Sequence record: OR525698.1
Origin: Escherichia phage vB-Eco-KMB43
Strand: one strand, 5' to 3'
Length of the DNA stretch: 64,000 bases
Part shown: positions 1 to 8,699 of the stretch, one piece after another
How the letters are laid out: each line of letters begins with the position of its first letter
Position numbering within the stretch: position 1 is the stretch's first letter
The notes under the pieces: model-generated
Databases searched by the model: none
The model's input: only the letters and a program-made list of their open reading frames with translations
What the model was told of the DNA's origin: nothing
Translations under genes and position numbers: made by a program

Positions 1-119
1 TCTAGATATGTAAACATACCATCAATATTAGGTCTTTGTTCGTAACTCCAACAATCACGCAAAATACGCTTTTCGTATTCGCCAACCAACGCATAGGTCT
101 TACCTTCTTCCCATTTCAT
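1..119 (-). CDS. hypothetical protein, N-terminal part only (gene runs past window start); paralog of 124..621
   Basis: ATG at 119-117; translation MKWEEGKTYALVG resembles MKWELGKMYTLDG of the next ORF. Confidence 0.4.
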   Translation of the reverse strand, partial: MKWEEGKTYALVGEYEKRILRDCWSYEQRPNIDGMFTYL

Positions 120-123
120 AATA

Positions 124-621
124 TTATCTCTCATTTTTGATACGTGATTCTAATTGGATCATACGGTCGCGCGTTTGCTTGTATTCACGGATAGCACCGA
201 TCCGGCTAGGCATACCATCTAGGACGCTCTTAATCCCTTCTAGGGTAGTGATTTTAGCAATGCTATTATGTAACCCCATCTTATCGATCAACTGAATGTC
301 GTAGGCTTCCATAAGCAGACCCAGACGTTCTAAGGTTAGATCTGGTTCTTTAACTTCTTTAAAGAATCGACGTTCACCAGCCCAAAACCACGCACCGTGC
401 GCACCAATTGGAGTGTCTCGAACAGAAATACATTTACCATCACTTAACGAGATTTCAAGAACATGACCCTCATTACTCATAACCTCGACTGTAAAAGGAC
501 GTCCATCAAGAAACTCAGCAACTTGACGGTTGATTGACAGTTCAGATTTGGTAAATTCTGCTTTCTTCTCATCACCATCAAGAGTGTACATCTTACCCAA
601 TTCCCATTTCATAGCAATCAC
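124..621 (-). CDS. hypothetical protein (probable start near 612)
   Basis: ORF track; start overlaps nrdG stop; N-terminus paralogous to ORF at 1..119. Confidence 0.55.
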   Translation of the reverse strand: MIAMKWELGKMYTLDGDEKKAEFTKSELSINRQVAEFLDGRPFTVEVMSNEGHVLEISLSDGKCISVRDTPIGAHGAWFWAGERRFFKEVKEPDLTLERLGLLMEAYDIQLIDKMGLHNSIAKITTLEGIKSVLDGMPSRIGAIREYKQTRDRMIQLESRIKNER

Positions 622-622
622 C

Positions 623-1132
623 TCAAATAATTTTTACTGGAATACTATTAACAATCTTGTATTGTACTTGATTGTCAGACCCCCGCCACGGCTTCTTCGT
701 TGGCATATCTTTAATATAACGACCATCGATGAACATGTCAACTGATTCTACAATTTTTCTTTGCTCATCATTCAATTGGTCAAGGGTATAACCAGACCAT
801 AGCCAAATATCTTTATTTGGCATCCATGATTTTACTTCATCGATGATCCGCTGTACACCCTTTAAATTGCGTTTATACAGTGGATCTCCACCTAAGAATG
901 TTAGCCCCTGAATAAAATCAGGTCTAAGCAGATCCAGAATCAATCCCATTGTATCATCGGTGAATGGTTCCCCGTTCTTAGGATTGAGTAGACTAGCATT
1001 AAAGCAACCATCACATGCGTGTGAACATCCGGTAACGTAAAGGGAGACTCTCACTCCCTCACCGTTAACCATATCACAATCTTTAATATCGGCATAGCGT
1101 AATTTGCCGTATGTATCAGAACTCATATTCAA
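623..1132 (-). CDS. nrdG: anaerobic ribonucleotide reductase activating protein (radical SAM)
   Basis: CxxxCxxC motif (CSHACDGC); size and position downstream of nrdD as in T4-type phages. Confidence 0.85.
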   Translation of the reverse strand: MNMSSDTYGKLRYADIKDCDMVNGEGVRVSLYVTGCSHACDGCFNASLLNPKNGEPFTDDTMGLILDLLRPDFIQGLTFLGGDPLYKRNLKGVQRIIDEVKSWMPNKDIWLWSGYTLDQLNDEQRKIVESVDMFIDGRYIKDMPTKKPWRGSDNQVQYKIVNSIPVKII

Positions 1133-1357: not shown

Positions 1358-1903
1358 TCAAAGTATTCTTTCTAGCCATTCGCGACCAGTCATATGAGTA
1401 CCCGCAATCATAAAATTATGGTCTGGCGAGGACCGAAACATATCTAAAATAAACTTCCGACATTCCTCATAGTCATCACGTTTAAGATAGACCACGTTCT
1501 CGCCAGTGCCAATAACTCCTTTACGATAGCCATGTTCTTTACGCGTAGACCATTGCACAGTATCCTTTTTAACTCGAATCACGATTGGTTCCCAATATCC
1601 AGCACATCCAGCATGACCACACGAACAAGTAAGGAAGTATTGACCCTTTGCTTTGTTCTCATCCCATCCAACATTAATCGGATAACATTCATGAAACAAT
1701 GCTAAAACATCATGTGTCTCGTCAATATCTTTATCGTCAATTCGTGCAGTAAACACCCAAACAGGGATCTTATTACCTATTGGTTCATAATCATCGCCCC
1801 ACTCGTCATAAATAGTTTCTAAGGTCATATCAATATTGATTGATTTTGCCGCGTCAATATGTCGTTGTGCTTTACGTTTACGGTTTAATGATTTCATAGT
1901 CAC
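1358..1903 (-). CDS. hypothetical protein (Cys/His-rich)
   Basis: ORF track; between nrdD and nrdG on the same strand; no motif recognised. Confidence 0.55.
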   Translation of the reverse strand: MTMKSLNRKRKAQRHIDAAKSINIDMTLETIYDEWGDDYEPIGNKIPVWVFTARIDDKDIDETHDVLALFHECYPINVGWDENKAKGQYFLTCSCGHAGCAGYWEPIVIRVKKDTVQWSTRKEHGYRKGVIGTGENVVYLKRDDYEECRKFILDMFRSSPDHNFMIAGTHMTGREWLERIL

Positions 1904-1914
1904 CTCACATTATT

Positions 1915-2454
1915 TCAAAGATCGCGATATTGTACATTATGAAAATGAGAACTTGCATTACCAATATTGTAGATAACAAATTCTTCATCCGGCGCTTGCG
2001 CTACAAATTGAGTATGAGCAACCGCCACAACCTTAAAAATACGATCCGTGATCTTGTGTTTAATTTCTGCCCCTACTTCCATAGGAACATATTCATTTGT
2101 TTCTGTTTCAGTCGCAAAACAGCCATCTTCTTCATAAGCACGAACAAATCGGTCGCAATCAGTACGCTTAACAAATTCAAGAGTATATAATTCTCGTGAA
2201 TTGTCGGTATAGACCAATACAGAATTATTATGATAGCGAATCACATACAGGTTATTATCATCGTCAATTACGCAAAAGCTACGGATTCCTTCGCCTTGAC
2301 TCCAGCAGATATTAACCACCGTTCCTCTAATAAAAAAACTTTCCTTTAAATTAAAACTAGCCAATGTGCTAGCGTGCATTTTAACAACAACGCCATCACC
2401 AATTTCCAGTTTACGAAGTTTAACTTCTTTGCTCAGTACACAAAACATCATCAT
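1915..2454 (-). CDS. hypothetical protein
   Basis: ORF track; preceded by promoter cassette and RBS. Confidence 0.55.
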   Translation of the reverse strand: MMMFCVLSKEVKLRKLEIGDGVVVKMHASTLASFNLKESFFIRGTVVNICWSQGEGIRSFCVIDDDNNLYVIRYHNNSVLVYTDNSRELYTLEFVKRTDCDRFVRAYEEDGCFATETETNEYVPMEVGAEIKHKITDRIFKVVAVAHTQFVAQAPDEEFVIYNIGNASSHFHNVQYRDL

Positions 2455-2520: not shown

Positions 2521-2550
2521 ACGAAAAAGCCGACCCTTTCGGATCGGCTG
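2521..2550 (-). terminator. rho-independent terminator after nrdD
   Basis: Hairpin GCCGATCC-gaaa-GGGTCGGC followed by a T-run on the minus strand. Confidence 0.7.
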
Positions 2551-2554
2551 AAAA

Positions 2555-4417
2555 TTACATGTGCTTAACGCGGTTTACCATCTCGGAGTGTTTCCCGTGG
2601 TTAAATGGACGCAGATCAACAGATCCAAGATATCCACTAACGCGACGGATAACATTCATCTTTTCCAGATTGTCATTGCCGCAATCAGGGCAAACAAAAC
2701 CAGACTCGGTCGCTCTCATTTCCTTATTAGATCCGCATACATGACATACATCAGAAGGAGTATTAACACCGAAGTAGTGCAATTTATCCATTGCATAGTC
2801 TACTACAGTTTCAAGACCTTTCAGGTTGTTTTTCATGTCTGGGAACTCAACATAAGAGATCATGCCACCGGACGCCAGCCAGTGATAATCTTTCTCAAAG
2901 TCGATTTTCTCAAACGGTGTGACTTTCCGGTCTACGTCAAGGTGGAATGAGTTGGTGTACCAGTCTTTATCGGTAGCACCCTTAACAATACCAAATTGCT
3001 CTCGGTCCAGTCGATTAAATCGATAGCAAAGGCTCTCGGCTGGAGTACCGTAAAGACTAAACCCAAGTCCGGTTTCGTCCTTCCATTTTTCAGTATAATG
3101 ACGCAAGATCTTAAGAATATGTTTACCGTATCGCTGCGCATCTTCCGAATCAAACGGATGAACACCAAACAGGACGCTCAATACCTCATGTAAACCAATA
3201 TATCCAAGAGAGATACTAGCGCGACCATCTTTCAACACTTCCAAAATTTCATCGTTTTGATGAATACGGAAAAACGCACCTTCGGTATACAGTACAGGAG
3301 CAACATTGGCTTTAGCACCTTTTAAAGCGTCTACGCGACTCATGAGCGCATCAAAGCAAATAGGCATACGATTAGCTAGCTCTTGTTCGAATAGCTCAAT
3401 TCTGCGCATTACAGACGCTTTACCAGCACGACGCGCGGCAATAAGGGCAATACGCGGAAGATTCAGAGTCACAACACCTAAGTTATTACGTCCGTCTAAT
3501 ACTTCCTCGCCTTTCTCATTATGCCACACACCCAGGAAGCTACGACAACCCATCGGGCTAACCGGAACACTAGATCCGGTGATACTACGGTTATTCTTCG
3601 CAGAGATATAATCAGGGTAAAGACGCTTACTAGAACATTCCAATGCAAGTTGCTTAATGTCGTAGTTCGGATCTTCCGGTTTAAGGTTTAATCCTTCTTC
3701 TAAGAACATCACCAGCTTAGGAAACACCGGAGTGATACCATCTTTACCTAAACCTTTAGTTCGAACGTTCAGGATCGCTTTCTGAATCAGTTTTTCTTCC
3801 CAGCTAGTCCCCATACCAAATGTTAAAGTCACAAAAGGTGTTTGACCGTTGGTGGAGAACAAAGTGTTGATTTCATATTCCAACGCTTGATACCCGTCTA
3901 GCGTTTCTTTTTCTGTCTTCTCTTGTGCATAGAGAGTATCCGCTTTGATTCCGTAGGTTTCGGCATCAGCAAGGTGTTTATGATATGTTTTCTCAACGTA
4001 TGGCGCTAAAACCTGATCGATGTTTGCAATTGTGGTCCCGCCATATTGATGACTTGCCACCTGTGCGATAATTTGAGCGGTTACAGCACAAGCAACGCCG
4101 ATTGATTTCGGACTTTCGATTTGTGCGCTACCCAATTTAAAACCATTCTCTAACATGTCTTTGAGGTTAACAAGACAGCAGTTAGTAAACGGCATAGCGG
4201 GTGCATAATCCATATCATGATAATGAATGTCACCGTCTACATGCGCTTTATAGATGTGCTCAGGTAACACGGTTTTAGCAATCTGTTTAGACACAGCACC
4301 AGCAATCAGATCTCGACGTGTCGGGAATGTTCGCGCGTCTTTGTTCGCGTTCTCTTTGCTTACTTCGTTTTCTTTACCCGTTGCGATCTCTGTAATGTCT
4401 TTGATTAGTTTTTCCAT
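2555..4417 (-). CDS. nrdD: anaerobic ribonucleoside-triphosphate reductase (glycyl radical enzyme)
   Basis: C-terminal RVSGY glycyl-radical motif plus CxxC zinc ribbon; N-terminus closely resembles T4 NrdD as recalled; uninterrupted 620 aa ORF. Confidence 0.95.
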   Translation of the reverse strand: MEKLIKDITEIATGKENEVSKENANKDARTFPTRRDLIAGAVSKQIAKTVLPEHIYKAHVDGDIHYHDMDYAPAMPFTNCCLVNLKDMLENGFKLGSAQIESPKSIGVACAVTAQIIAQVASHQYGGTTIANIDQVLAPYVEKTYHKHLADAETYGIKADTLYAQEKTEKETLDGYQALEYEINTLFSTNGQTPFVTLTFGMGTSWEEKLIQKAILNVRTKGLGKDGITPVFPKLVMFLEEGLNLKPEDPNYDIKQLALECSSKRLYPDYISAKNNRSITGSSVPVSPMGCRSFLGVWHNEKGEEVLDGRNNLGVVTLNLPRIALIAARRAGKASVMRRIELFEQELANRMPICFDALMSRVDALKGAKANVAPVLYTEGAFFRIHQNDEILEVLKDGRASISLGYIGLHEVLSVLFGVHPFDSEDAQRYGKHILKILRHYTEKWKDETGLGFSLYGTPAESLCYRFNRLDREQFGIVKGATDKDWYTNSFHLDVDRKVTPFEKIDFEKDYHWLASGGMISYVEFPDMKNNLKGLETVVDYAMDKLHYFGVNTPSDVCHVCGSNKEMRATESGFVCPDCGNDNLEKMNVIRRVSGYLGSVDLRPFNHGKHSEMVNRVKHM

Positions 4418-4461
4418 TGTATCACCTATGAAAAAGCGGGATTTCTCCCGCTCGTTGATAG

Positions 4462-4956
4462 TTATTTTACCAGTTCTGCTAATTCTTTTTCCGCCGCTTC
4501 CAGTTCAGCTTTCAGTTGTTTGATCTCTTGTCGCTTCTTATTAGCGGCTTCCTGCTTACTATTTCGGATAATCTGATCTAGATATGAATCCCACTCCTGA
4601 ATATTTTTGATAATGTAACCGTCAACATTAATTGGTCGGAGATTTAGTACAGCTTCCAGTTTAGTTGCAAAAACTTTAATTGCTGGTGTGAAGTATTCAT
4701 ACTCGTTATCTTCAAACCAATAGCCTAGACTTGCATTCTCAATACGAAGACGAAGTTCAAGATCAAGGTCTTTATCTTCGGTGTAAAGATCTTGCACATG
4801 CCCCATCGAACTAACAACAACTTTAAAACGAATTTTATCAACACCACCAAACACACCAGTAAGTATACCAGCAATTGAGCTATTAGCGCAAGATTGGTCG
4901 CTGAATGCGTCAAGGTTTTCTTTAGTTACAGTATACCAAACATCTTGTACCCACAT
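4462..4956 (-). CDS. hypothetical protein with C-terminal coiled coil
   Basis: ORF track; C-terminal heptad-like tail (KQLKAELEAAEKELAELVK) similar in character to tails of 5011..6189 and 6246..6830. Confidence 0.55.
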   Translation of the reverse strand: MWVQDVWYTVTKENLDAFSDQSCANSSIAGILTGVFGGVDKIRFKVVVSSMGHVQDLYTEDKDLDLELRLRIENASLGYWFEDNEYEYFTPAIKVFATKLEAVLNLRPINVDGYIIKNIQEWDSYLDQIIRNSKQEAANKKRQEIKQLKAELEAAEKELAELVK

Positions 4957-4980
4957 AATATAATCCTCTCGTTGTTAAGT

Positions 4981-5014
4981 GGGAGTATTATAGCATACTC
5001 CCTTCGCATGTCAA
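4981..5014 (-). promoter_or_regulatory. early promoter with inverted repeat GGGAGTAT..ATACTCCC spanning the -10
   Basis: tgtcaa at 5009-5014; perfect 8 bp inverted-repeat arms at 4981-5002. Confidence 0.55.
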
Positions 5015-6189
5015 ACACTAACTTTTTTCTTTACTGCTTTCACCTTCTGGCGAATTGCTCGAATCTCTTCGATCTCTTTTTCAGTCTCTTTAACAATTTC
5101 TTTGCGATTCTGAATATCTGTATCTAGATTCTCATCGAGTTTAGGAAGCATGTCGATCAAGAACTTTTTAAGGTCTTTCAGGTTGCGAATAACAGTACCT
5201 TCACCCATTACCGCAACACCCACACCATCCGGCAGATCACCAAACAGCTTAACCAGTTCAGACAGATGATCATGATCTTCTAGTGCTTCTTCCGGTTCAG
5301 ATGGCAGTTCAACAAAGTTATAACGTTCATCATTGCTGATCAAGTGATACCAGCAAAGCCCGAAAGATTTCGGTGTATATTCTACACCATCAATTTCAAC
5401 CGCGTCAACACTTCCATAATCATCTACTTTAGTTACCTTAAATCCTTGTCCCAGCTTTTGAACAATTTCAACAACATGACTTGATACAGTTTCAGCGGTA
5501 AACCAATATGGCAAATTATGCTGATTTGGCTTGTAGCGTTCACCTACTTTAAATCTCTGACCATCCGCTTGCATAGCATGAAATTGTTGTTGCGTGATTT
5601 CCGCGAAGTATTCAAATTCGCTACCGTCAAACAAGCAATTCCATTGATCACAAAAACGATCTGCCTTAACAGTTTCACCTTTCGCGGTGATCATGGTAGC
5701 TGATCCGTGCAATTCTTCTTCAACTAAAAAGCCATATTCGACAAAATCAACAAGTTTCATAGCTTCTTTGTGATCTGGATCATGCTCTCCCCAGAATCGC
5801 TTAAATTCTTGCAAACCTTCTGGGGTAAACGAATAACATTTACCTTTTTCAAAGTAAGTCGGCATTGCATCCTCTTTCTTGTTCATCGCTTCGTATGCCT
5901 CTTTTGAGATACGTTTAAAGTATTTGCGCTCATTGTTCATAATCATAGTAGCCCAATAATCCACAATATCATTAGCGGAATAAACTACATCTCCAGCTTC
6001 AATAGTAATAACATGACCGTGGTCATCTTTTTCTAATACTTTAAAGCCCTTTTCTACGATTTCAGCAACCCGAATATGACCACGGCGCGAAGCATCGGTC
6101 AGAATAATTGAATAGCGAGAAAAGTCTAGAAACTCATCTTTACCGCCTTCACGGAATGCATAGTAATGACCTTCAAAGAATTTAGCCAT
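5011..6189 (-). CDS. hypothetical protein with three copies of an ~80 aa repeat domain
   Basis: Internal repeats (YYAFREGG...KGFKVLEKDDHGHV; QGFKVTKVDDYGSVDAVEIDGVEYTPKSF) shared with ORFs 6246..6830 and 6839..7159. Confidence 0.65.
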   Translation of the reverse strand: MAKFFEGHYYAFREGGKDEFLDFSRYSIILTDASRRGHIRVAEIVEKGFKVLEKDDHGHVITIEAGDVVYSANDIVDYWATMIMNNERKYFKRISKEAYEAMNKKEDAMPTYFEKGKCYSFTPEGLQEFKRFWGEHDPDHKEAMKLVDFVEYGFLVEEELHGSATMITAKGETVKADRFCDQWNCLFDGSEFEYFAEITQQQFHAMQADGQRFKVGERYKPNQHNLPYWFTAETVSSHVVEIVQKLGQGFKVTKVDDYGSVDAVEIDGVEYTPKSFGLCWYHLISNDERYNFVELPSEPEEALEDHDHLSELVKLFGDLPDGVGVAVMGEGTVIRNLKDLKKFLIDMLPKLDENLDTDIQNRKEIVKETEKEIEEIRAIRQKVKAVKKKVSV

Positions 6190-6204
6190 AATATAATCCT
6201 CTCG

Positions 6205-6239
6205 TTGTTTAGATGGGAGTATCTTACTACTCCCGTTTC
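6205..6239 (-). promoter_or_regulatory. early promoter (TTGACA -17- TAAGAT) with inverted repeat GGGAGTA..TACTCCC over the -10
   Basis: tgtcaa at 6234-6239; atctta at 6211-6216; inverted repeat 6205-6224. Confidence 0.6.
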
Positions 6240-6245
6240 ATCATG

Positions 6246-6830
6246 TCAAGCGTTAAATGACTTTTGGATCTCTTTCAGTTCAGCTACTTTATCGGCGCTA
6301 TATTTTGCTTGATGTTCCATGCGCTTAAGCTCACCTTTGATATAGGTTTCTAGCTTAGGTTTATTCTCAATCAGAAAATCTTTCAAGTCATCGGCATTTT
6401 TAAAGTATAGCTGATTGTCAAAGCTAAAATCTTCCAGCGTCAATGATACCAAAGAAGACTTCGCAAACAAGTTAATCAGACCTTCCAGAGATTCTTCTTT
6501 CTTAACTGGTTTCATTTCTTCAAACTGCTTTTTAGTGATGCGTTTAAAGTATTTGCGCTCGTTTGCAGCAATCAGAACAGATGCACCTTCATACCCATGA
6601 GTTTCTACCAGATACACACGCCCCATCGCATCAACAGTGAGAACTTTAAAGCCGTTACAAAGCACGTCATACAAGAACTTATTATGTTGCGGACATCGTT
6701 TGATAAATTCTGCGGCTGTTTCTGCACTACGGAAAGTGTAATAACGACCTCGTTCAAAAACAGCATCATTTGAAGACTTAGCCGGATACAATTTATACGT
6801 TTTCTGTACCATAATATAATCCTCTATCAT
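6246..6830 (-). CDS. hypothetical protein, paralog of 5011..6189 (one repeat domain plus helical tail); probable start 6812
   Basis: Shares NERKYFKRI(S/T)K and GFKVL motifs with neighbour; internal ATG at 6812 (MVQKTYK). Confidence 0.6.
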   Translation of the reverse strand: MIEDYIMVQKTYKLYPAKSSNDAVFERGRYYTFRSAETAAEFIKRCPQHNKFLYDVLCNGFKVLTVDAMGRVYLVETHGYEGASVLIAANERKYFKRITKKQFEEMKPVKKEESLEGLINLFAKSSLVSLTLEDFSFDNQLYFKNADDLKDFLIENKPKLETYIKGELKRMEHQAKYSADKVAELKEIQKSFNA

Positions 6831-6838
6831 TTCACTAA

Positions 6839-7159
6839 TTAAACAGCACGGAACAGAATGCGCTCACACGGAAGCAGCATAAATTCCCAACGCGGGTCAA
6901 AGTCTTTAGCGGTGTATGTTTTCCCATCAACCGCTATTTCACTTACATAACCAACAGGTGACACTTTAAGAACAGTAAACCCATTCTTGATGACTTCGTA
7001 GGTATCTTTCACCCCTTCGTATTCATCATCTAAGAAGTCTTTATGTGCTTGCTCAGATTTAAAAACATAGGCCACACCGGATTTAAACATCTTACGCATT
7101 GTTGATTCTCCTTCTTGATTAGATGGGAGTATTTTACTACTCCCATTTCTTATTGTCAA
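6839..7159 (-). CDS. small hypothetical protein, single repeat domain of the same family (probable CDS 6839..7099)
   Basis: Track start is TTG inside the promoter -35; ATG at 7099 (MRKMFKS) has GGAGAATCAACA RBS; NGFTVLKVSPVGYVSEIAVDGKTYTAKDF matches the family repeat. Confidence 0.5.
   Translation of the reverse strand: MTIRNGSSKILPSNQEGESTMRKMFKSGVAYVFKSEQAHKDFLDDEYEGVKDTYEVIKNGFTVLKVSPVGYVSEIAVDGKTYTAKDFDPRWEFMLLPCERILFRAV
7125..7159 (-). promoter_or_regulatory. early promoter with GGGAGTA..TACTCCC inverted repeat
   Basis: tgtcaa at 7154-7159; inverted repeat 7125-7144. Confidence 0.55.
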
Positions 7160-7162
7160 CTA

Positions 7163-7651
7163 CTATCTTAATCTTTGTATGAATTGTTTCTTATACTTCT
7201 TCGTGATTTCTTCTCGTGTATCAGCGTCACAGTAATCGAAACCTTCTGCGTCCATAATATCAACCATCTCCGCGCGTGTCAAGCGTGAAAATCGTTTTAC
7301 TTTATCAACGGCATATTGAGGATGTAAATGATTGTTGGTGTAGTCTCCTTTGATGTAATTAACATAGTTTGTAGCCCAAACAACGAAATCAGCACCTAAA
7401 GCACCAACACCAAACCGTTTAAAGTCTCCGGTCAACGATCCTTCTAGGCGGTTGCAACACGAATGAAGCAATCCCCTTACTCGGCCTTGCCCTTTCCCAT
7501 CTAGATCATGATCATGGTCAAGATGGTTTTTGCTCATATCCTCAAAAAGTGGCAATTGACAAAGGGGGCAAATGCCCCCCTGTTTTTCGAATAGTTCTTG
7601 TTTGTACTCTTTAGCACTCTTAGCAGTCAGTAACATAAATTCACCCTCCAA
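7163..7651 (-). CDS. 49: recombination endonuclease VII (Holliday junction resolvase)
   Basis: CPLCQ...NHLDHDHDLDG...GRVRGLLHSCCN motifs match T4 gp49 as recalled (zinc site plus His-Me finger). Confidence 0.9.
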   Translation of the reverse strand: MEGEFMLLTAKSAKEYKQELFEKQGGICPLCQLPLFEDMSKNHLDHDHDLDGKGQGRVRGLLHSCCNRLEGSLTGDFKRFGVGALGADFVVWATNYVNYIKGDYTNNHLHPQYAVDKVKRFSRLTRAEMVDIMDAEGFDYCDADTREEITKKYKKQFIQRLR

Positions 7652-7660
7652 AGAAGGTAT

Positions 7661-7954
7661 TTAACCATTAATCTTGTTTTTGACTACAAAGGATCGGAAC
7701 TCATCAAAACCACCGATATAATCACCGTCATAGAAAATCTGCGGCATGGTGGCAATAACTTCTACCCCTGCGCGATCCTGAATGTCGGCAATGATAGAAT
7801 CAATCTTTACCGGACGACCGTTTTCGTCTACACCATCATTAACCGGAATGTAGATGTAAGGGATCTTACGCGATTCACAAAGGCGCTTTGCATTCTGGCA
7901 ATACTTACAGTTGTAACCTTCAAAACCAAAAATTTCTACCATGTTATACCTCAT
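7661..7954 (-). CDS. nrdC: glutaredoxin/thioredoxin (RNR electron donor)
   Basis: CKYCQNAKRL active-site CxxC and C-terminal MPQIFYDGDYIGGFDE resemble T4 NrdC as recalled. Confidence 0.85.
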   Translation of the reverse strand: MRYNMVEIFGFEGYNCKYCQNAKRLCESRKIPYIYIPVNDGVDENGRPVKIDSIIADIQDRAGVEVIATMPQIFYDGDYIGGFDEFRSFVVKNKING

Positions 7955-8699
7955 TCAGTTCTATATCAAGTTCATTTTCAATAATATAGGCATTAACTGC
8001 CCGTGCCGCATCATCTTCTGTGTCAAATCTTCCTATATACACACCGCGAACTTTAGCACCGTAATTACCTTGTTTTGGTACTTTGTAAACGTATCTATGA
8101 CGGGAACTTGCTGCTTTTTGGAGCTTCTTGCCATATTCAGACTTTGCATATTCTATATCATCAATCTCGTTTATACAAGACCTATCACCAAAATGTTTCA
8201 ACGCGGCAAGATTATATGCATACGCCGCGCCGATCTCGGAGGGAAAATATCCTAAATGTATCGACTTCCCATCCAACATTATTGCACCAGTCCAATAACC
8301 TTTATTCTTATTAAACGACACACCTTTATACTTCGAATATGTTTTGCATTTGGTCTTGCTCATATTCATATTATTTTGTTTGCGTGTCGTCTCTCTAAGG
8401 TTTTCAATGCGGCTATTATAACGATCTCGGTCTTTATGATCTATATACTTAGGACAATGACCATGAAACATATGATAGATAACACGGTGCATACGTTCGT
8501 ATCGCTCGCCAGTCCATACAATACGATACCCATCGGGGGTATCACTTCCAGCTAATCCGTTTATAACACCTTTTCGGTGCGGGTGAATCTTCCACCTAAG
8601 AAAACCATCATCATAATAAAACCGTGAATGATATAAATCATATAAACGTTTATCTTCTGGAGTCTTGTGTATAACCTCATATTTTAACATTGGTGACAT
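7944..8699 (-). CDS. free-standing HNH homing endonuclease with two AP2-like DNA-binding domains
   Basis: HNH core (IDHKDRDRYNSRIENLRETTRKQN) plus two YKGVS/YxYKV...GxYxGRF AP2-type repeats. Confidence 0.8.
   Translation of the reverse strand: MSPMLKYEVIHKTPEDKRLYDLYHSRFYYDDGFLRWKIHPHRKGVINGLAGSDTPDGYRIVWTGERYERMHRVIYHMFHGHCPKYIDHKDRDRYNSRIENLRETTRKQNNMNMSKTKCKTYSKYKGVSFNKNKGYWTGAIMLDGKSIHLGYFPSEIGAAYAYNLAALKHFGDRSCINEIDDIEYAKSEYGKKLQKAASSRHRYVYKVPKQGNYGAKVRGVYIGRFDTEDDAARAVNAYIIENELDIELNEV

Follow-up and report, generated by a model that had tools for sequence, protein, structure and literature searches.

The DNA analyzed here is a stretch of 64,000 nucleotides (nt) from Escherichia phage vB-Eco-KMB43 (OR525698.1), called the window below. 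The phage is an RB49-like T4-type coliphage of the genus Krischvirus. Between gene 49 and nrdD, the window carries four consecutive genes, termed A to D in the order of their transcription, which share a repeated domain. We find that this domain is very probably the N-terminal domain of the T4 GoF/Frd.2/MotB.1 family and that three of the four genes are preceded by promoter-early stem-loop (PeSL) cassettes. The interval contains the following features, given with lengths in amino acids (aa):

7125-7159, minus strand: PeSL cassette upstream of A; -35 element TTGACA at 7159-7154, 17-nt spacer, -10 element TAAAAT at 7136-7131, stem-loop GGGAGTA-N6-TACTCCC at 7125-7144

6839-7099, minus strand: gene A, 86 aa; a single N-terminal barrel domain of the GoF/Frd.2 type, without a C-terminal module

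6246-6812, minus strand: gene B, 188 aa; barrel domain (about 6513-6761), joined by the linker NERKYFKRITKK to a C-terminal module with a helical tail

6215-6249, minus strand: PeSL cassette upstream of C; -35 element TTGACA at 6249-6244, -10 element TAAGAT at 6226-6221, stem-loop GGGAGTA-N6-TACTCCC at 6215-6234

5011-6189, minus strand: gene C, 392 aa; three tandem domain copies and a C-terminal module

5884-6189, minus strand: repeat 1 of gene C, aa 1-102

5569-5859, minus strand: repeat 2 of gene C, aa 111-207

5284-5559, minus strand: repeat 3 of gene C, aa 211-302, the copy nearest to T4 Frd.2

5011-5283, minus strand: C-terminal module of gene C; predicted short helix and beta-hairpin, then a helix at aa 337-391 (about 55 residues) and the stop codon

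4981-5014, minus strand: PeSL cassette upstream of D; -35 element TTGACA at 5014-5009, 16-nt spacer, -10 element TATAAT at 4992-4987, stem-loop GGGAGTA-N8-TACTCCC at 4981-5002

4462-4956, minus strand: gene D, 164 aa; divergent barrel at about 4660-4956, then a conserved C-terminal module, probably that of B and C, with a coiled-coil tail

4431-4451, minus strand: intrinsic terminator GCGGGA-GAAA-TCCCGC followed by TTTTT, closing the cluster after D and upstream of nrdD

All four open reading frames (ORFs) of the initial annotation exist on the minus strand, with one change at their borders. The start of B is most likely the ATG at 6812 and not the one at 6830 chosen at first, because the former has a GAGG Shine-Dalgarno sequence and agrees with the annotation in other phages. 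B has no promoter of its own and begins 27 nt past the stop codon of A. The length of A is 86 aa in the window and in phages SSG23 and AV108 and 90 aa in the eight other compared phages that carry it, the longer form having an additional C-terminal QLVK or QLVT. A terminator scan of the window did not list the hairpin after D, which was identified instead from its sequence and its fold (-17 kcal/mol, z score -4.8).

Comparison of the four genes confirmed a shared domain of about 90 aa that occurs once each in A, B, and D and three times in C. In an all-versus-all BLASTP comparison, A matched C at two places (E values 4e-7 and 8e-7) and B at one (1e-6), and B matched C at three places (3e-9, 5e-8, and 0.01). 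Smith-Waterman alignments gave z scores of 10 to 14 for A-B, A-C1, A-C3, B-C1, C1-C2 (14.0), and C1-C3, with C1 to C3 denoting the repeats of C, and the observed score was reached by none of 500 shuffles. A hidden Markov model (HMM) was built from T4 GoF, T4 Frd.2, T4 MotB.1, and metagenomic relatives, leaving out the window sequences; the metagenomic relatives had themselves been retrieved with a profile of the window units, whereas the T4 sequences are fully independent. This external HMM detected all six copies of the interval, at E values of 4e-18 for A, 4e-10 for B, 1.7e-12, 8.5e-10, and 1.2e-13 for the three repeats of C, and 2.8e-7 for D, whereas no unrelated ORF among the 273 ORFs of the window scored better than 0.06. 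A search of 1.84 billion representative proteins with a profile of five units recovered the C ortholog with three separate stretches. In a MAFFT alignment, the units share the motifs F-x-x-G-x-x-Y-x-F, G-F-K-V-L, G-x-V, G-x-x-Y, and W...L...(N/D)E(R)xYF.

Chance or compositional similarity, without any real repeat family behind it, would agree with those comparisons that are singly not significant, namely C2-C3 (z score 1.9) and the pairings of D with the remaining window units (z scores of at most 2.0). It does not accommodate the many pairs with z scores of 10 to 14, the external E values of 1e-7 to 1e-18, or the three stretches retrieved in the C ortholog. Being already refuted by the external HMM and the shuffle tests, this explanation retains practically no probability. 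The repeat family proposed in the initial annotation is therefore real, and self-comparison, the check named there, bears it out. The five copies counted at that time are genuine, but the interval holds six; the missed one is D, which the profile comparisons identify as a divergent member.

With respect to the identity of the domain, the PHROG families provide a link to proteins of T4. The family phrog_622 contains T4 GoF (4.6e-38) and T4 Frd.2 (4.1e-46) and matches gene C in three stretches (7.8e-21), gene A (8e-7), and gene B (7e-6). B (7e-97) and C fall into phrog_8944, which carries the name 'goF mRNA metabolism modulator' and which T4 Frd.2 matches at positions 198-301, corresponding to the third repeat. 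A and D matched phrog_16115 (1.4e-56) and phrog_3710 (4e-4), respectively, the latter match lending additional support to D as a copy of the domain. Direct comparisons agree with this picture. C repeat 3 aligned with residues 1-106 of T4 Frd.2 (BLASTP E value 3e-6, z score 10.4), and B aligned with residues 5-51 of T4 GoF (BLASTP E value 5e-5). Moreover, gene C is annotated as frd.2 in RB49, Phi1, and JSE, and as frd.2 or Frd.2-like in ECD7; the homology has thus been present in public annotation for many years. Taken together, these matches make it very probable that the repeat is the N-terminal domain of the GoF/Frd.2/MotB.1 family defined by Kim et al. 2025 (PMC12152347).

The initial annotation had recognized no known domain, a statement that does not hold and that is explained by the silence of Pfam on the window proteins. 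No significant Pfam match was obtained for A to D or for the further paralog E described below, and the FRD2 model (PF03197, gathering threshold 29 bits) did not match any of them at an E value of 1 or lower. This model is narrow, detecting T4 Frd.2 (133 bits, 5e-39) but missing T4 GoF and MotB.1. Pfam matches to RecT and LYR (about 8e-4) were below the cutoffs and were dismissed as spurious. Likewise, P0146, P0148, and P0153, three of the 13 matches in the library-wide HMM search, were discarded as false, as they are immunoglobulin- or cadherin-like repeats matching a short strand-turn-strand segment many times. A word-indexed homolog search with C returned only 8 near-identical clusters with little diversity, and the same type of search with a mixed alignment returned mostly Tequatrovirus GoF orthologs.

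T4 Frd.2 and gene C have several features in common. Both have the N-terminal barrel, an acidic linker, and a small C-terminal module, and both belong to T4-type phages, Frd.2 being encoded by an early gene. T4 Frd.2, however, comprises one domain in 128 aa, in contrast to the three domains and the coiled-coil-like helix of about 55 residues in the 392-aa C protein, and its gene lies beside gene 32 and not between gene 49 and nrdD. T4 GoF (ComC-alpha) shares phrog_622 with the window proteins and has lent its name to phrog_8944; it is acidic, early, and nonessential. It differs in having a single domain without the long helical tail, and its functional data come from the mutant D25Y only. MotB.1, the third published member, has the same predicted barrel but is the most distant of the three, matching phrog_622 only at 1.3e-3, and no pairwise similarity to the window copies was detectable.

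The family was predicted to adopt a five-stranded bent beta-sheet, termed LSm-like, and the solved structures closest to it were those of FeoA, SloR/IdeR, and Hfq (PMC12152347). Our models, although they rest on shallow alignments, are compatible with an SH3-like ('LSm-like') beta-barrel of five strands, in which helices separate strand 1 from strand 2 and strand 4 from strand 5. The AlphaFold2 model of C (mean predicted local distance difference test [pLDDT] score 72) contains the order strand 1, helices, strand 2, strand 3, strand 4, helix, strand 5, helix three times, written as b1-a-b2-b3-b4-a-b5-a for repeat 1 and matched by repeat 2. A disordered linker (residues 298-310) leads to the short helix, the beta-hairpin, and the long helix (337-391). 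The underlying alignment comprised 20 sequences and had depth over repeat 1 only. In the model of D (mean pLDDT 83.5, about 90 in the N-terminal domain), strand 1 is followed by two helices, strands 2 and 3, a helix at residues 62-74 that replaces strand 4, and strand 5; a disordered linker (94-106) then precedes a helix/hairpin/long-helix module as in C.

Foldseek comparison of the C model with the PDB yielded no match at an E value below 1e-3 and was used for the fold class only. The top matches were all SH3-like barrels: the Mib repeat of Mind bomb (0.012), four FeoA entries, ScaR, an archaeal Sm-like protein, NusG, and Tudor. These neighbors agree with those reported for GoF/Frd.2/MotB.1 (PMC12152347). 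FeoA (6e55, 2k5l, and 7r7b, TM-scores of 0.42 to 0.47 on the target) and the C-terminal SH3-like domains of the DtxR family (ScaR/SloR/IdeR; ScaR entry 3hru) are alike in fold, but the Foldseek E values of 0.4 to 2 are not significant, sequence similarity is absent, and GoF lacks metal-binding histidine motifs (PMC12152347). The predicted structures thus point to a resemblance of fold class and not to membership. Among the predicted viral structures of BFVD, 29 matches were found at E values below 1e-3, 28 of them at a probability of 0.99-1.00. All are uncharacterized or unnamed phage proteins, mostly from T4-like phages, and their hosts include Escherichia, Morganella, Proteus, Cronobacter, Pectobacterium, Citrobacter, Klebsiella, and Aeromonas. 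Many of these proteins are 225-317 aa long and likely have several domains.

The term LSm-like raises the possibility that the proteins are true Hfq/LSm-type RNA chaperones, the barrels of which would form rings and bind RNA, with the triple-domain C protein acting as a prelinked half-ring. Apart from the name, the mRNA stabilization by GoF(D25Y) and the archaeal Sm-like protein among the weak PDB matches speak in its favor. In canonical Sm folds, the helix is N-terminal, before the five strands. The predicted position of the helix, after strand 1 and before strand 2, is closer to that in FeoA-type SH3-like barrels, and the FeoA and Mib domains also match better than the Sm-like protein, which reached E values of 4 to 8 only. 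Most copies are strongly acidic: the charge is -21 for C, -9 for the N-terminal domain of D, -11 for T4 GoF, and -15 for T4 Frd.2, and only the N-terminal domain of B is basic. Furthermore, wild-type GoF and MotB.1 lack an RNA effect, and AlphaFold3 hexamers were not confident, with an interface predicted TM-score below 0.3 (PMC12152347). We therefore consider RNA chaperones of this type improbable and do not assign the window proteins to the LSm class. In some records, B and C are called 'mRNA metabolism modulator', an over-transfer by PHROG-based pipelines.

Barrel, flexible linker, and separate C-terminal domain make up B, C, and D, whereas A lacks the C-terminal part; E, judged by its sequence, is probably built like the former. 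The C-terminal module is common to B and C (z score 7.8), and D probably possesses it too (C-D z score 4.1, with the same predicted layout of short helix, beta-hairpin, and long helix). When the C-terminal parts of E, GoF, and Frd.2 were compared pairwise with those of B, C, and D, no similarity was significant; our claim of a shared C-terminal domain is accordingly limited to B and C, with D as a probable addition. According to the initial annotation, three genes share either the peptide NERKYFKRI(S/T)K or a helical tail. This is accurate for the tail, with D as the probable third member, and too broad for NERKYFKRI, which is confined to B and C repeat 1. At the DNA level, the linker sequences of C repeat 1 and B (5882-5934 and 6511-6563) are 77% identical across 53 nt and almost the same in a core of about 26 nt. 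This linker may represent a recombination junction between the paralogs.

The definition of PeSLs comes from the work of Arbiol et al. 2010 on RB49 and Phi1 (PMC2839356), which demonstrated promoter and terminator activity by experiment, contains experimental evidence of recombination as well, and put these cassettes forward as agents of modular shuffling. The cassettes upstream of A, C, and D match 11, 10, and 12 of the 12 sigma-70 consensus positions, respectively, and their hairpins have folding energies of -13.8 kcal/mol (z score -3.1), -13.6 kcal/mol (z score -3.9), and -13.3 kcal/mol. The 7- to 8-bp stems overlap the -10 element in each case, with z scores between -2.0 and -3.9. Three of the four genes hence have their own sigma-70-type promoter cassette, as was noted initially. 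Like the published PeSLs (PMC2839356), they combine a sigma-70 consensus promoter with a stem-loop over the -10 element, lie between genes immediately ahead of the Shine-Dalgarno sequence and start codon of an accessory ORF, and have the stop codon of the upstream gene at or within the -35 element. B and C each end with a TGA inside the TTGACA of the next cassette (6244-6249 and 5009-5014), so that coding end and promoter are fused. They differ from the published PeSLs in their stems, which consist of GGGAGTA/TACTCCC and not of the usual polyG/polyC and thereby form a private subtype. This stem occurs exactly three times in the 64 kb, at the A, C, and D cassettes, compared with an expected number of 0; the other PeSL-like cassettes of the window have GGGGG/CCCCC or other stems.

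The private stem of the three cassettes indicates that promoter and gene were duplicated together. In addition, the leader GAGGATTATATTATG is common to B, C, and D. We are confident, though short of certain, that the cluster originated by duplication of PeSL cassettes; as read from the sequences, it grew by duplication of whole promoter-plus-gene units and by internal triplication of the domain. Tandem duplication, within one gene and between genes, had already been proposed in the initial annotation and accounts for these paralogs. The genome of phage KFS-EC adds a deletion to the duplications. It lacks A and B, and at the junction the 5' half of the A cassette is joined to the 3' half of the C cassette. 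This arrangement identifies the deletion as a PeSL-to-PeSL crossover of the kind described in 2010, and it argues that PeSL cassettes serve as recombination sites for the removal of the ORFs between them, a process still active at this locus.

The domain family was initially described as filling the interval between nrdD and gene 49. A to D do so, but further members lie outside it, at the end of the window downstream of nrdG:

124-612, minus strand: gene E, 162 aa; paralog directly downstream of nrdG (external HMM 2e-13), ortholog of RB49p051

1-119, minus strand: N-terminal 39 codons (MKWEEGKTYALVG...) of the gene that follows E and continues past the window edge; recognized from a DNA repeat and the translation

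The latter gene opens with MKWE.GK.Y, which repeats the N-terminal motif of E and of RB49p049/p050. This suggests another paralog, the available part of which is too short for the domain model. In RB49, nrdG is followed by p051, p050, p049 (two domains), and p048, all of which match the domain model at 1e-8 to 1e-29, with the caveat that the p049 ortholog was in the seed of this model. RB49 thus carries at least eight such genes with at least 11 domains within about 9 kb, compared with three single-domain genes in T4. The library-wide search yielded two-domain relatives (P0149 and P0154), and the three-domain form was found in the C ortholog cluster only. The close architecture of C was represented by 8 clusters at 82-92% identity among 5.8 billion proteins and is confined to Krischvirus-like sequences.

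The 2.85-kb region has matches in 58 phage records, all from Escherichia, Shigella, or Enterobacteria phages; those records that were examined belong to Krischvirus. In 56 of the 58, which contain the four-gene block, 80% or more of the region is matched, with identities of 90-99%. The ratio of nonsynonymous to synonymous substitutions (dN/dS) and the synonymous divergence (dS) were compared among 12 Krischvirus sequences, with the following results:

gene A: dN/dS 0.19, dS 0.14

gene B: dN/dS 0.25, dS 0.33; its C-terminal part: dN/dS 0.22, dS 0.61

gene C: dN/dS 0.26, dS 0.11

gene D: dN/dS 0.35, dS 0.37; its N-terminal domain: dN/dS 0.40, dS 0.52

gene 49: dN/dS 0.04, dS 0.07

nrdC: dN/dS 0.09, dS 0.09

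nrdD: dN/dS 0.03, dS 0.09

Nonsynonymous evolution of A to D was 3 to 10 times faster than that of the neighboring genes. Positive selection was not found at the level of genes or domains, dN/dS being 0.15-0.40 in A to D and never above 1. dS was elevated in the most divergent blocks (0.52-0.61, compared with about 0.08 in the flanks). Such raised dS together with dN/dS values of at most 0.40 points to recombinational import of diverged modules rather than to demonstrated positive selection.

The distribution of variation along the genes suggests how this import may occur. Block-wise nucleotide identity to the window fell into discrete classes, which assort independently among 10 phages:

D N-terminal domain: class 1, 93-97%; class 2, 62-65%

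C repeat 3: class 1, 98-99%; class 2, 89-92%

B N-terminal domain: class 1, 99-100%; class 2, 86%

B C-terminal part: class 1, 98-99%; class 2, 69-72%

The blocks have sharp edges and near-identical flanks. Phage FL20, for example, is 97-100% identical to the window from the terminator into the start of the D tail (about 4550), 83-87% identical further into the tail, and only about 57% identical across 4610-4935, before identity returns to 100% at the first codons of D and the PeSL. In B, a fully conserved island at the NERKYFKRITKK linker splits two divergent blocks. At the protein level, the N-terminal domain of D is down to 46% identity, and that of E is about 50% identical to RB49 p051, the last 66 residues of which are identical; the tails of D and E are 86-100% identical. 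We read these patterns as domain-sized modules being swapped by homologous recombination through conserved flanks. Such an exchange would be compatible with diversifying or balancing selection and proves neither.

The independent reassortment of alleles bears on a further explanation, according to which A to D form a counterdefense or host specificity battery. Here, the barrels would be variable recognition modules, carried on a constant tail, for a polymorphic host target, e.g., a defense protein or a nuclease, and diversifying or balancing selection would keep the alleles circulating. This explanation overlaps with the one we prefer, the expansion of the GoF/Frd.2 family by PeSL cassettes, but makes an arms race the driving force. 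It draws on the accelerated evolution relative to nrdD, gene 49, and nrdC, on the hypervariable N-terminal domains of D and E above conserved tails, on the 10 phages among which the discrete alleles reassort, and on the presumably early, dispensable nature of the genes in a plastic region. Yet no region exceeds a dN/dS of 1, the maximum of 0.40 being that of the D N-terminal domain, and import of old diverged alleles explains the raised dS in the same blocks without positive selection. In B, moreover, the C-terminal part is the most variable, and not the barrel. An arms race, which the initial annotation had suggested, is thus consistent with the faster evolution and the allele-like swapping, whereas the dN/dS comparison proposed there as a check did not return any value above 1; as the driving force, it appears to us possible but doubtful.

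Early expression of A to D is suggested by the promoter type and by the T4 homologs being early genes; promoters for the host RNA polymerase would drive expression right after infection. A and B can be considered dispensable because of their natural deletion in KFS-EC. These properties are difficult to reconcile with a conserved housekeeping or structural function in the phage, which we regard as very improbable. The presence of the four-gene block in nearly all of the records and the scoring of T4 frd.2 as a fitness gene in one screen are what such a function would predict. KFS-EC, however, is a deposited isolate without A and B, the promoters are of the early type, the genes are highly variable compared with the neighboring core genes, and the close C architecture is limited to Krischvirus-like sequences.

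Overall, we consider it probable that the cluster represents the GoF/Frd.2 family, expanded by means of PeSL cassettes. The barrels would act as binding modules for a host or phage macromolecule and the long C-terminal helix would mediate self-association; for this combination of a binding module and an oligomerizing tail we regard the chances as about even. GoF and MotB.1 were reported to run also at dimer size in sodium dodecyl sulfate-polyacrylamide gel electrophoresis without reducing agent (PMC12152347). By analogy with GoF(D25Y), the affected process may be mRNA stability; a role in RNA metabolism specifically nevertheless seems rather unlikely. A protein ligand is more likely than direct RNA binding, because most copies are acidic and wild-type GoF has no RNA effect.

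Several observations weigh against this interpretation. D is tied to the family at the profile level only, where hhalign of the D family against the five-unit profile was collinear at an E value of 1.3e-3 and a probability of 18%; in pairwise comparisons, its z scores to the other window units stayed at or below 2.0, with T4 Frd.2 as its best match (z score 3.6). As the alignment for the D model contained paralogs, this model is partly circular. Oligomerization of the tail is deduced from a single predicted feature, the long helix. In the work of Kim et al., the reporter RNA was stabilized by the mutant GoF(D25Y) only, wild-type GoF and MotB.1 being without effect (PMC12152347). Finally, a CRISPRi-ART knockdown screen across T4 identified frd.2 as a fitness gene, the sole one without a known function; hence, the attribute 'dispensable' may fail for some members or hosts.

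The genes around the cluster are likewise on the minus strand and follow the transcription order dam, homing endonuclease, nrdC, gene 49, A, B, C, D, nrdD, three ORFs, nrdG, and E, with the following coordinates:

7661-7954, minus strand: nrdC

7163-7636/7651, minus strand: gene 49 (endonuclease VII)

2555-4417, minus strand: nrdD

623-1132, minus strand: nrdG

Between nrdC and dam, a 251-aa ORF occupies positions 7944-8699 on the minus strand. An HNH or homing endonuclease is annotated at this position in GEC-3S, ELT3, and phiS, and the ORF is absent from RB49, ECD7, Phi1, and most others, in which dam directly follows nrdC; it looks like an insertion polymorphism of a mobile endonuclease. 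In JSE, nrdD is annotated as two pieces with a homing endonuclease gene between them (156-2778 of the compared region of this phage), and it is a single 620-aa ORF in the window and in other Krischviruses. The 3' part of gene 49 contains a near-consensus sigma-70 promoter (7254-7282, minus strand; TTGACA, 17 nt, TATTAT, with an upstream TG; 11 of 12 positions). Just downstream of nrdD, a canonical terminator hairpin with a T-run (2528-2549, minus strand) is followed at once by a promoter with all 12 consensus positions (2511-2484), a layout unlike the embedded hairpins of the PeSLs in the A-D cluster. Between nrdD and nrdG (1358-2454, minus strand), two ORFs of 181 and 179 aa have no family assignment and fall outside the barrel family (domain HMM E values above 0.5). 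In p054, the RB49 counterpart of the 181-aa ORF, the N-terminal region differs.

It is tempting to speculate further that the Krischvirus expansion, comprising at least eight genes and 11 barrels around nrdD and nrdG, constitutes a modular system with variable heads and constant tails, although we consider this unlikely at present. Each barrel allele would recognize a different host factor, such as a defense or RNA decay protein. Swaps between coinfecting phages would proceed via conserved flanks, with the PeSL and the first codons at one end and either the linker or the tail at the opposite end, and the triple-barrel protein C would be a multivalent version.

Both the domain and the cassettes are of already known kinds, and our results leave the nature of the family unchanged. 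Within the searchable literature, we found no description of three details, namely the expansion, the triple-domain protein, and the swapping of domains in the manner of alleles: the PeSL study (PMC2839356) does not mention ORFs 057-060, and no literature was found on frd.2 together with RB49. Among the early genes of T4-type phages that still lack an explanation, GoF/Frd.2/MotB.1 make up one of the larger groups. That an RB49-type phage carries roughly three times the copies of T4, including a triple-domain protein, and that these copies are spread by PeSLs while their domains circulate as discrete alleles, could guide experiments. The natural variants, namely the two classes of D heads, the two classes of B tails, and the A-B deletion of KFS-EC, provide ready material for work on host range or partner binding. 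If the notion of variable heads on constant tails were true, the family would not be a set of redundant accessory genes but the counterpart, in a phage, of diversified arsenals of binding domains.

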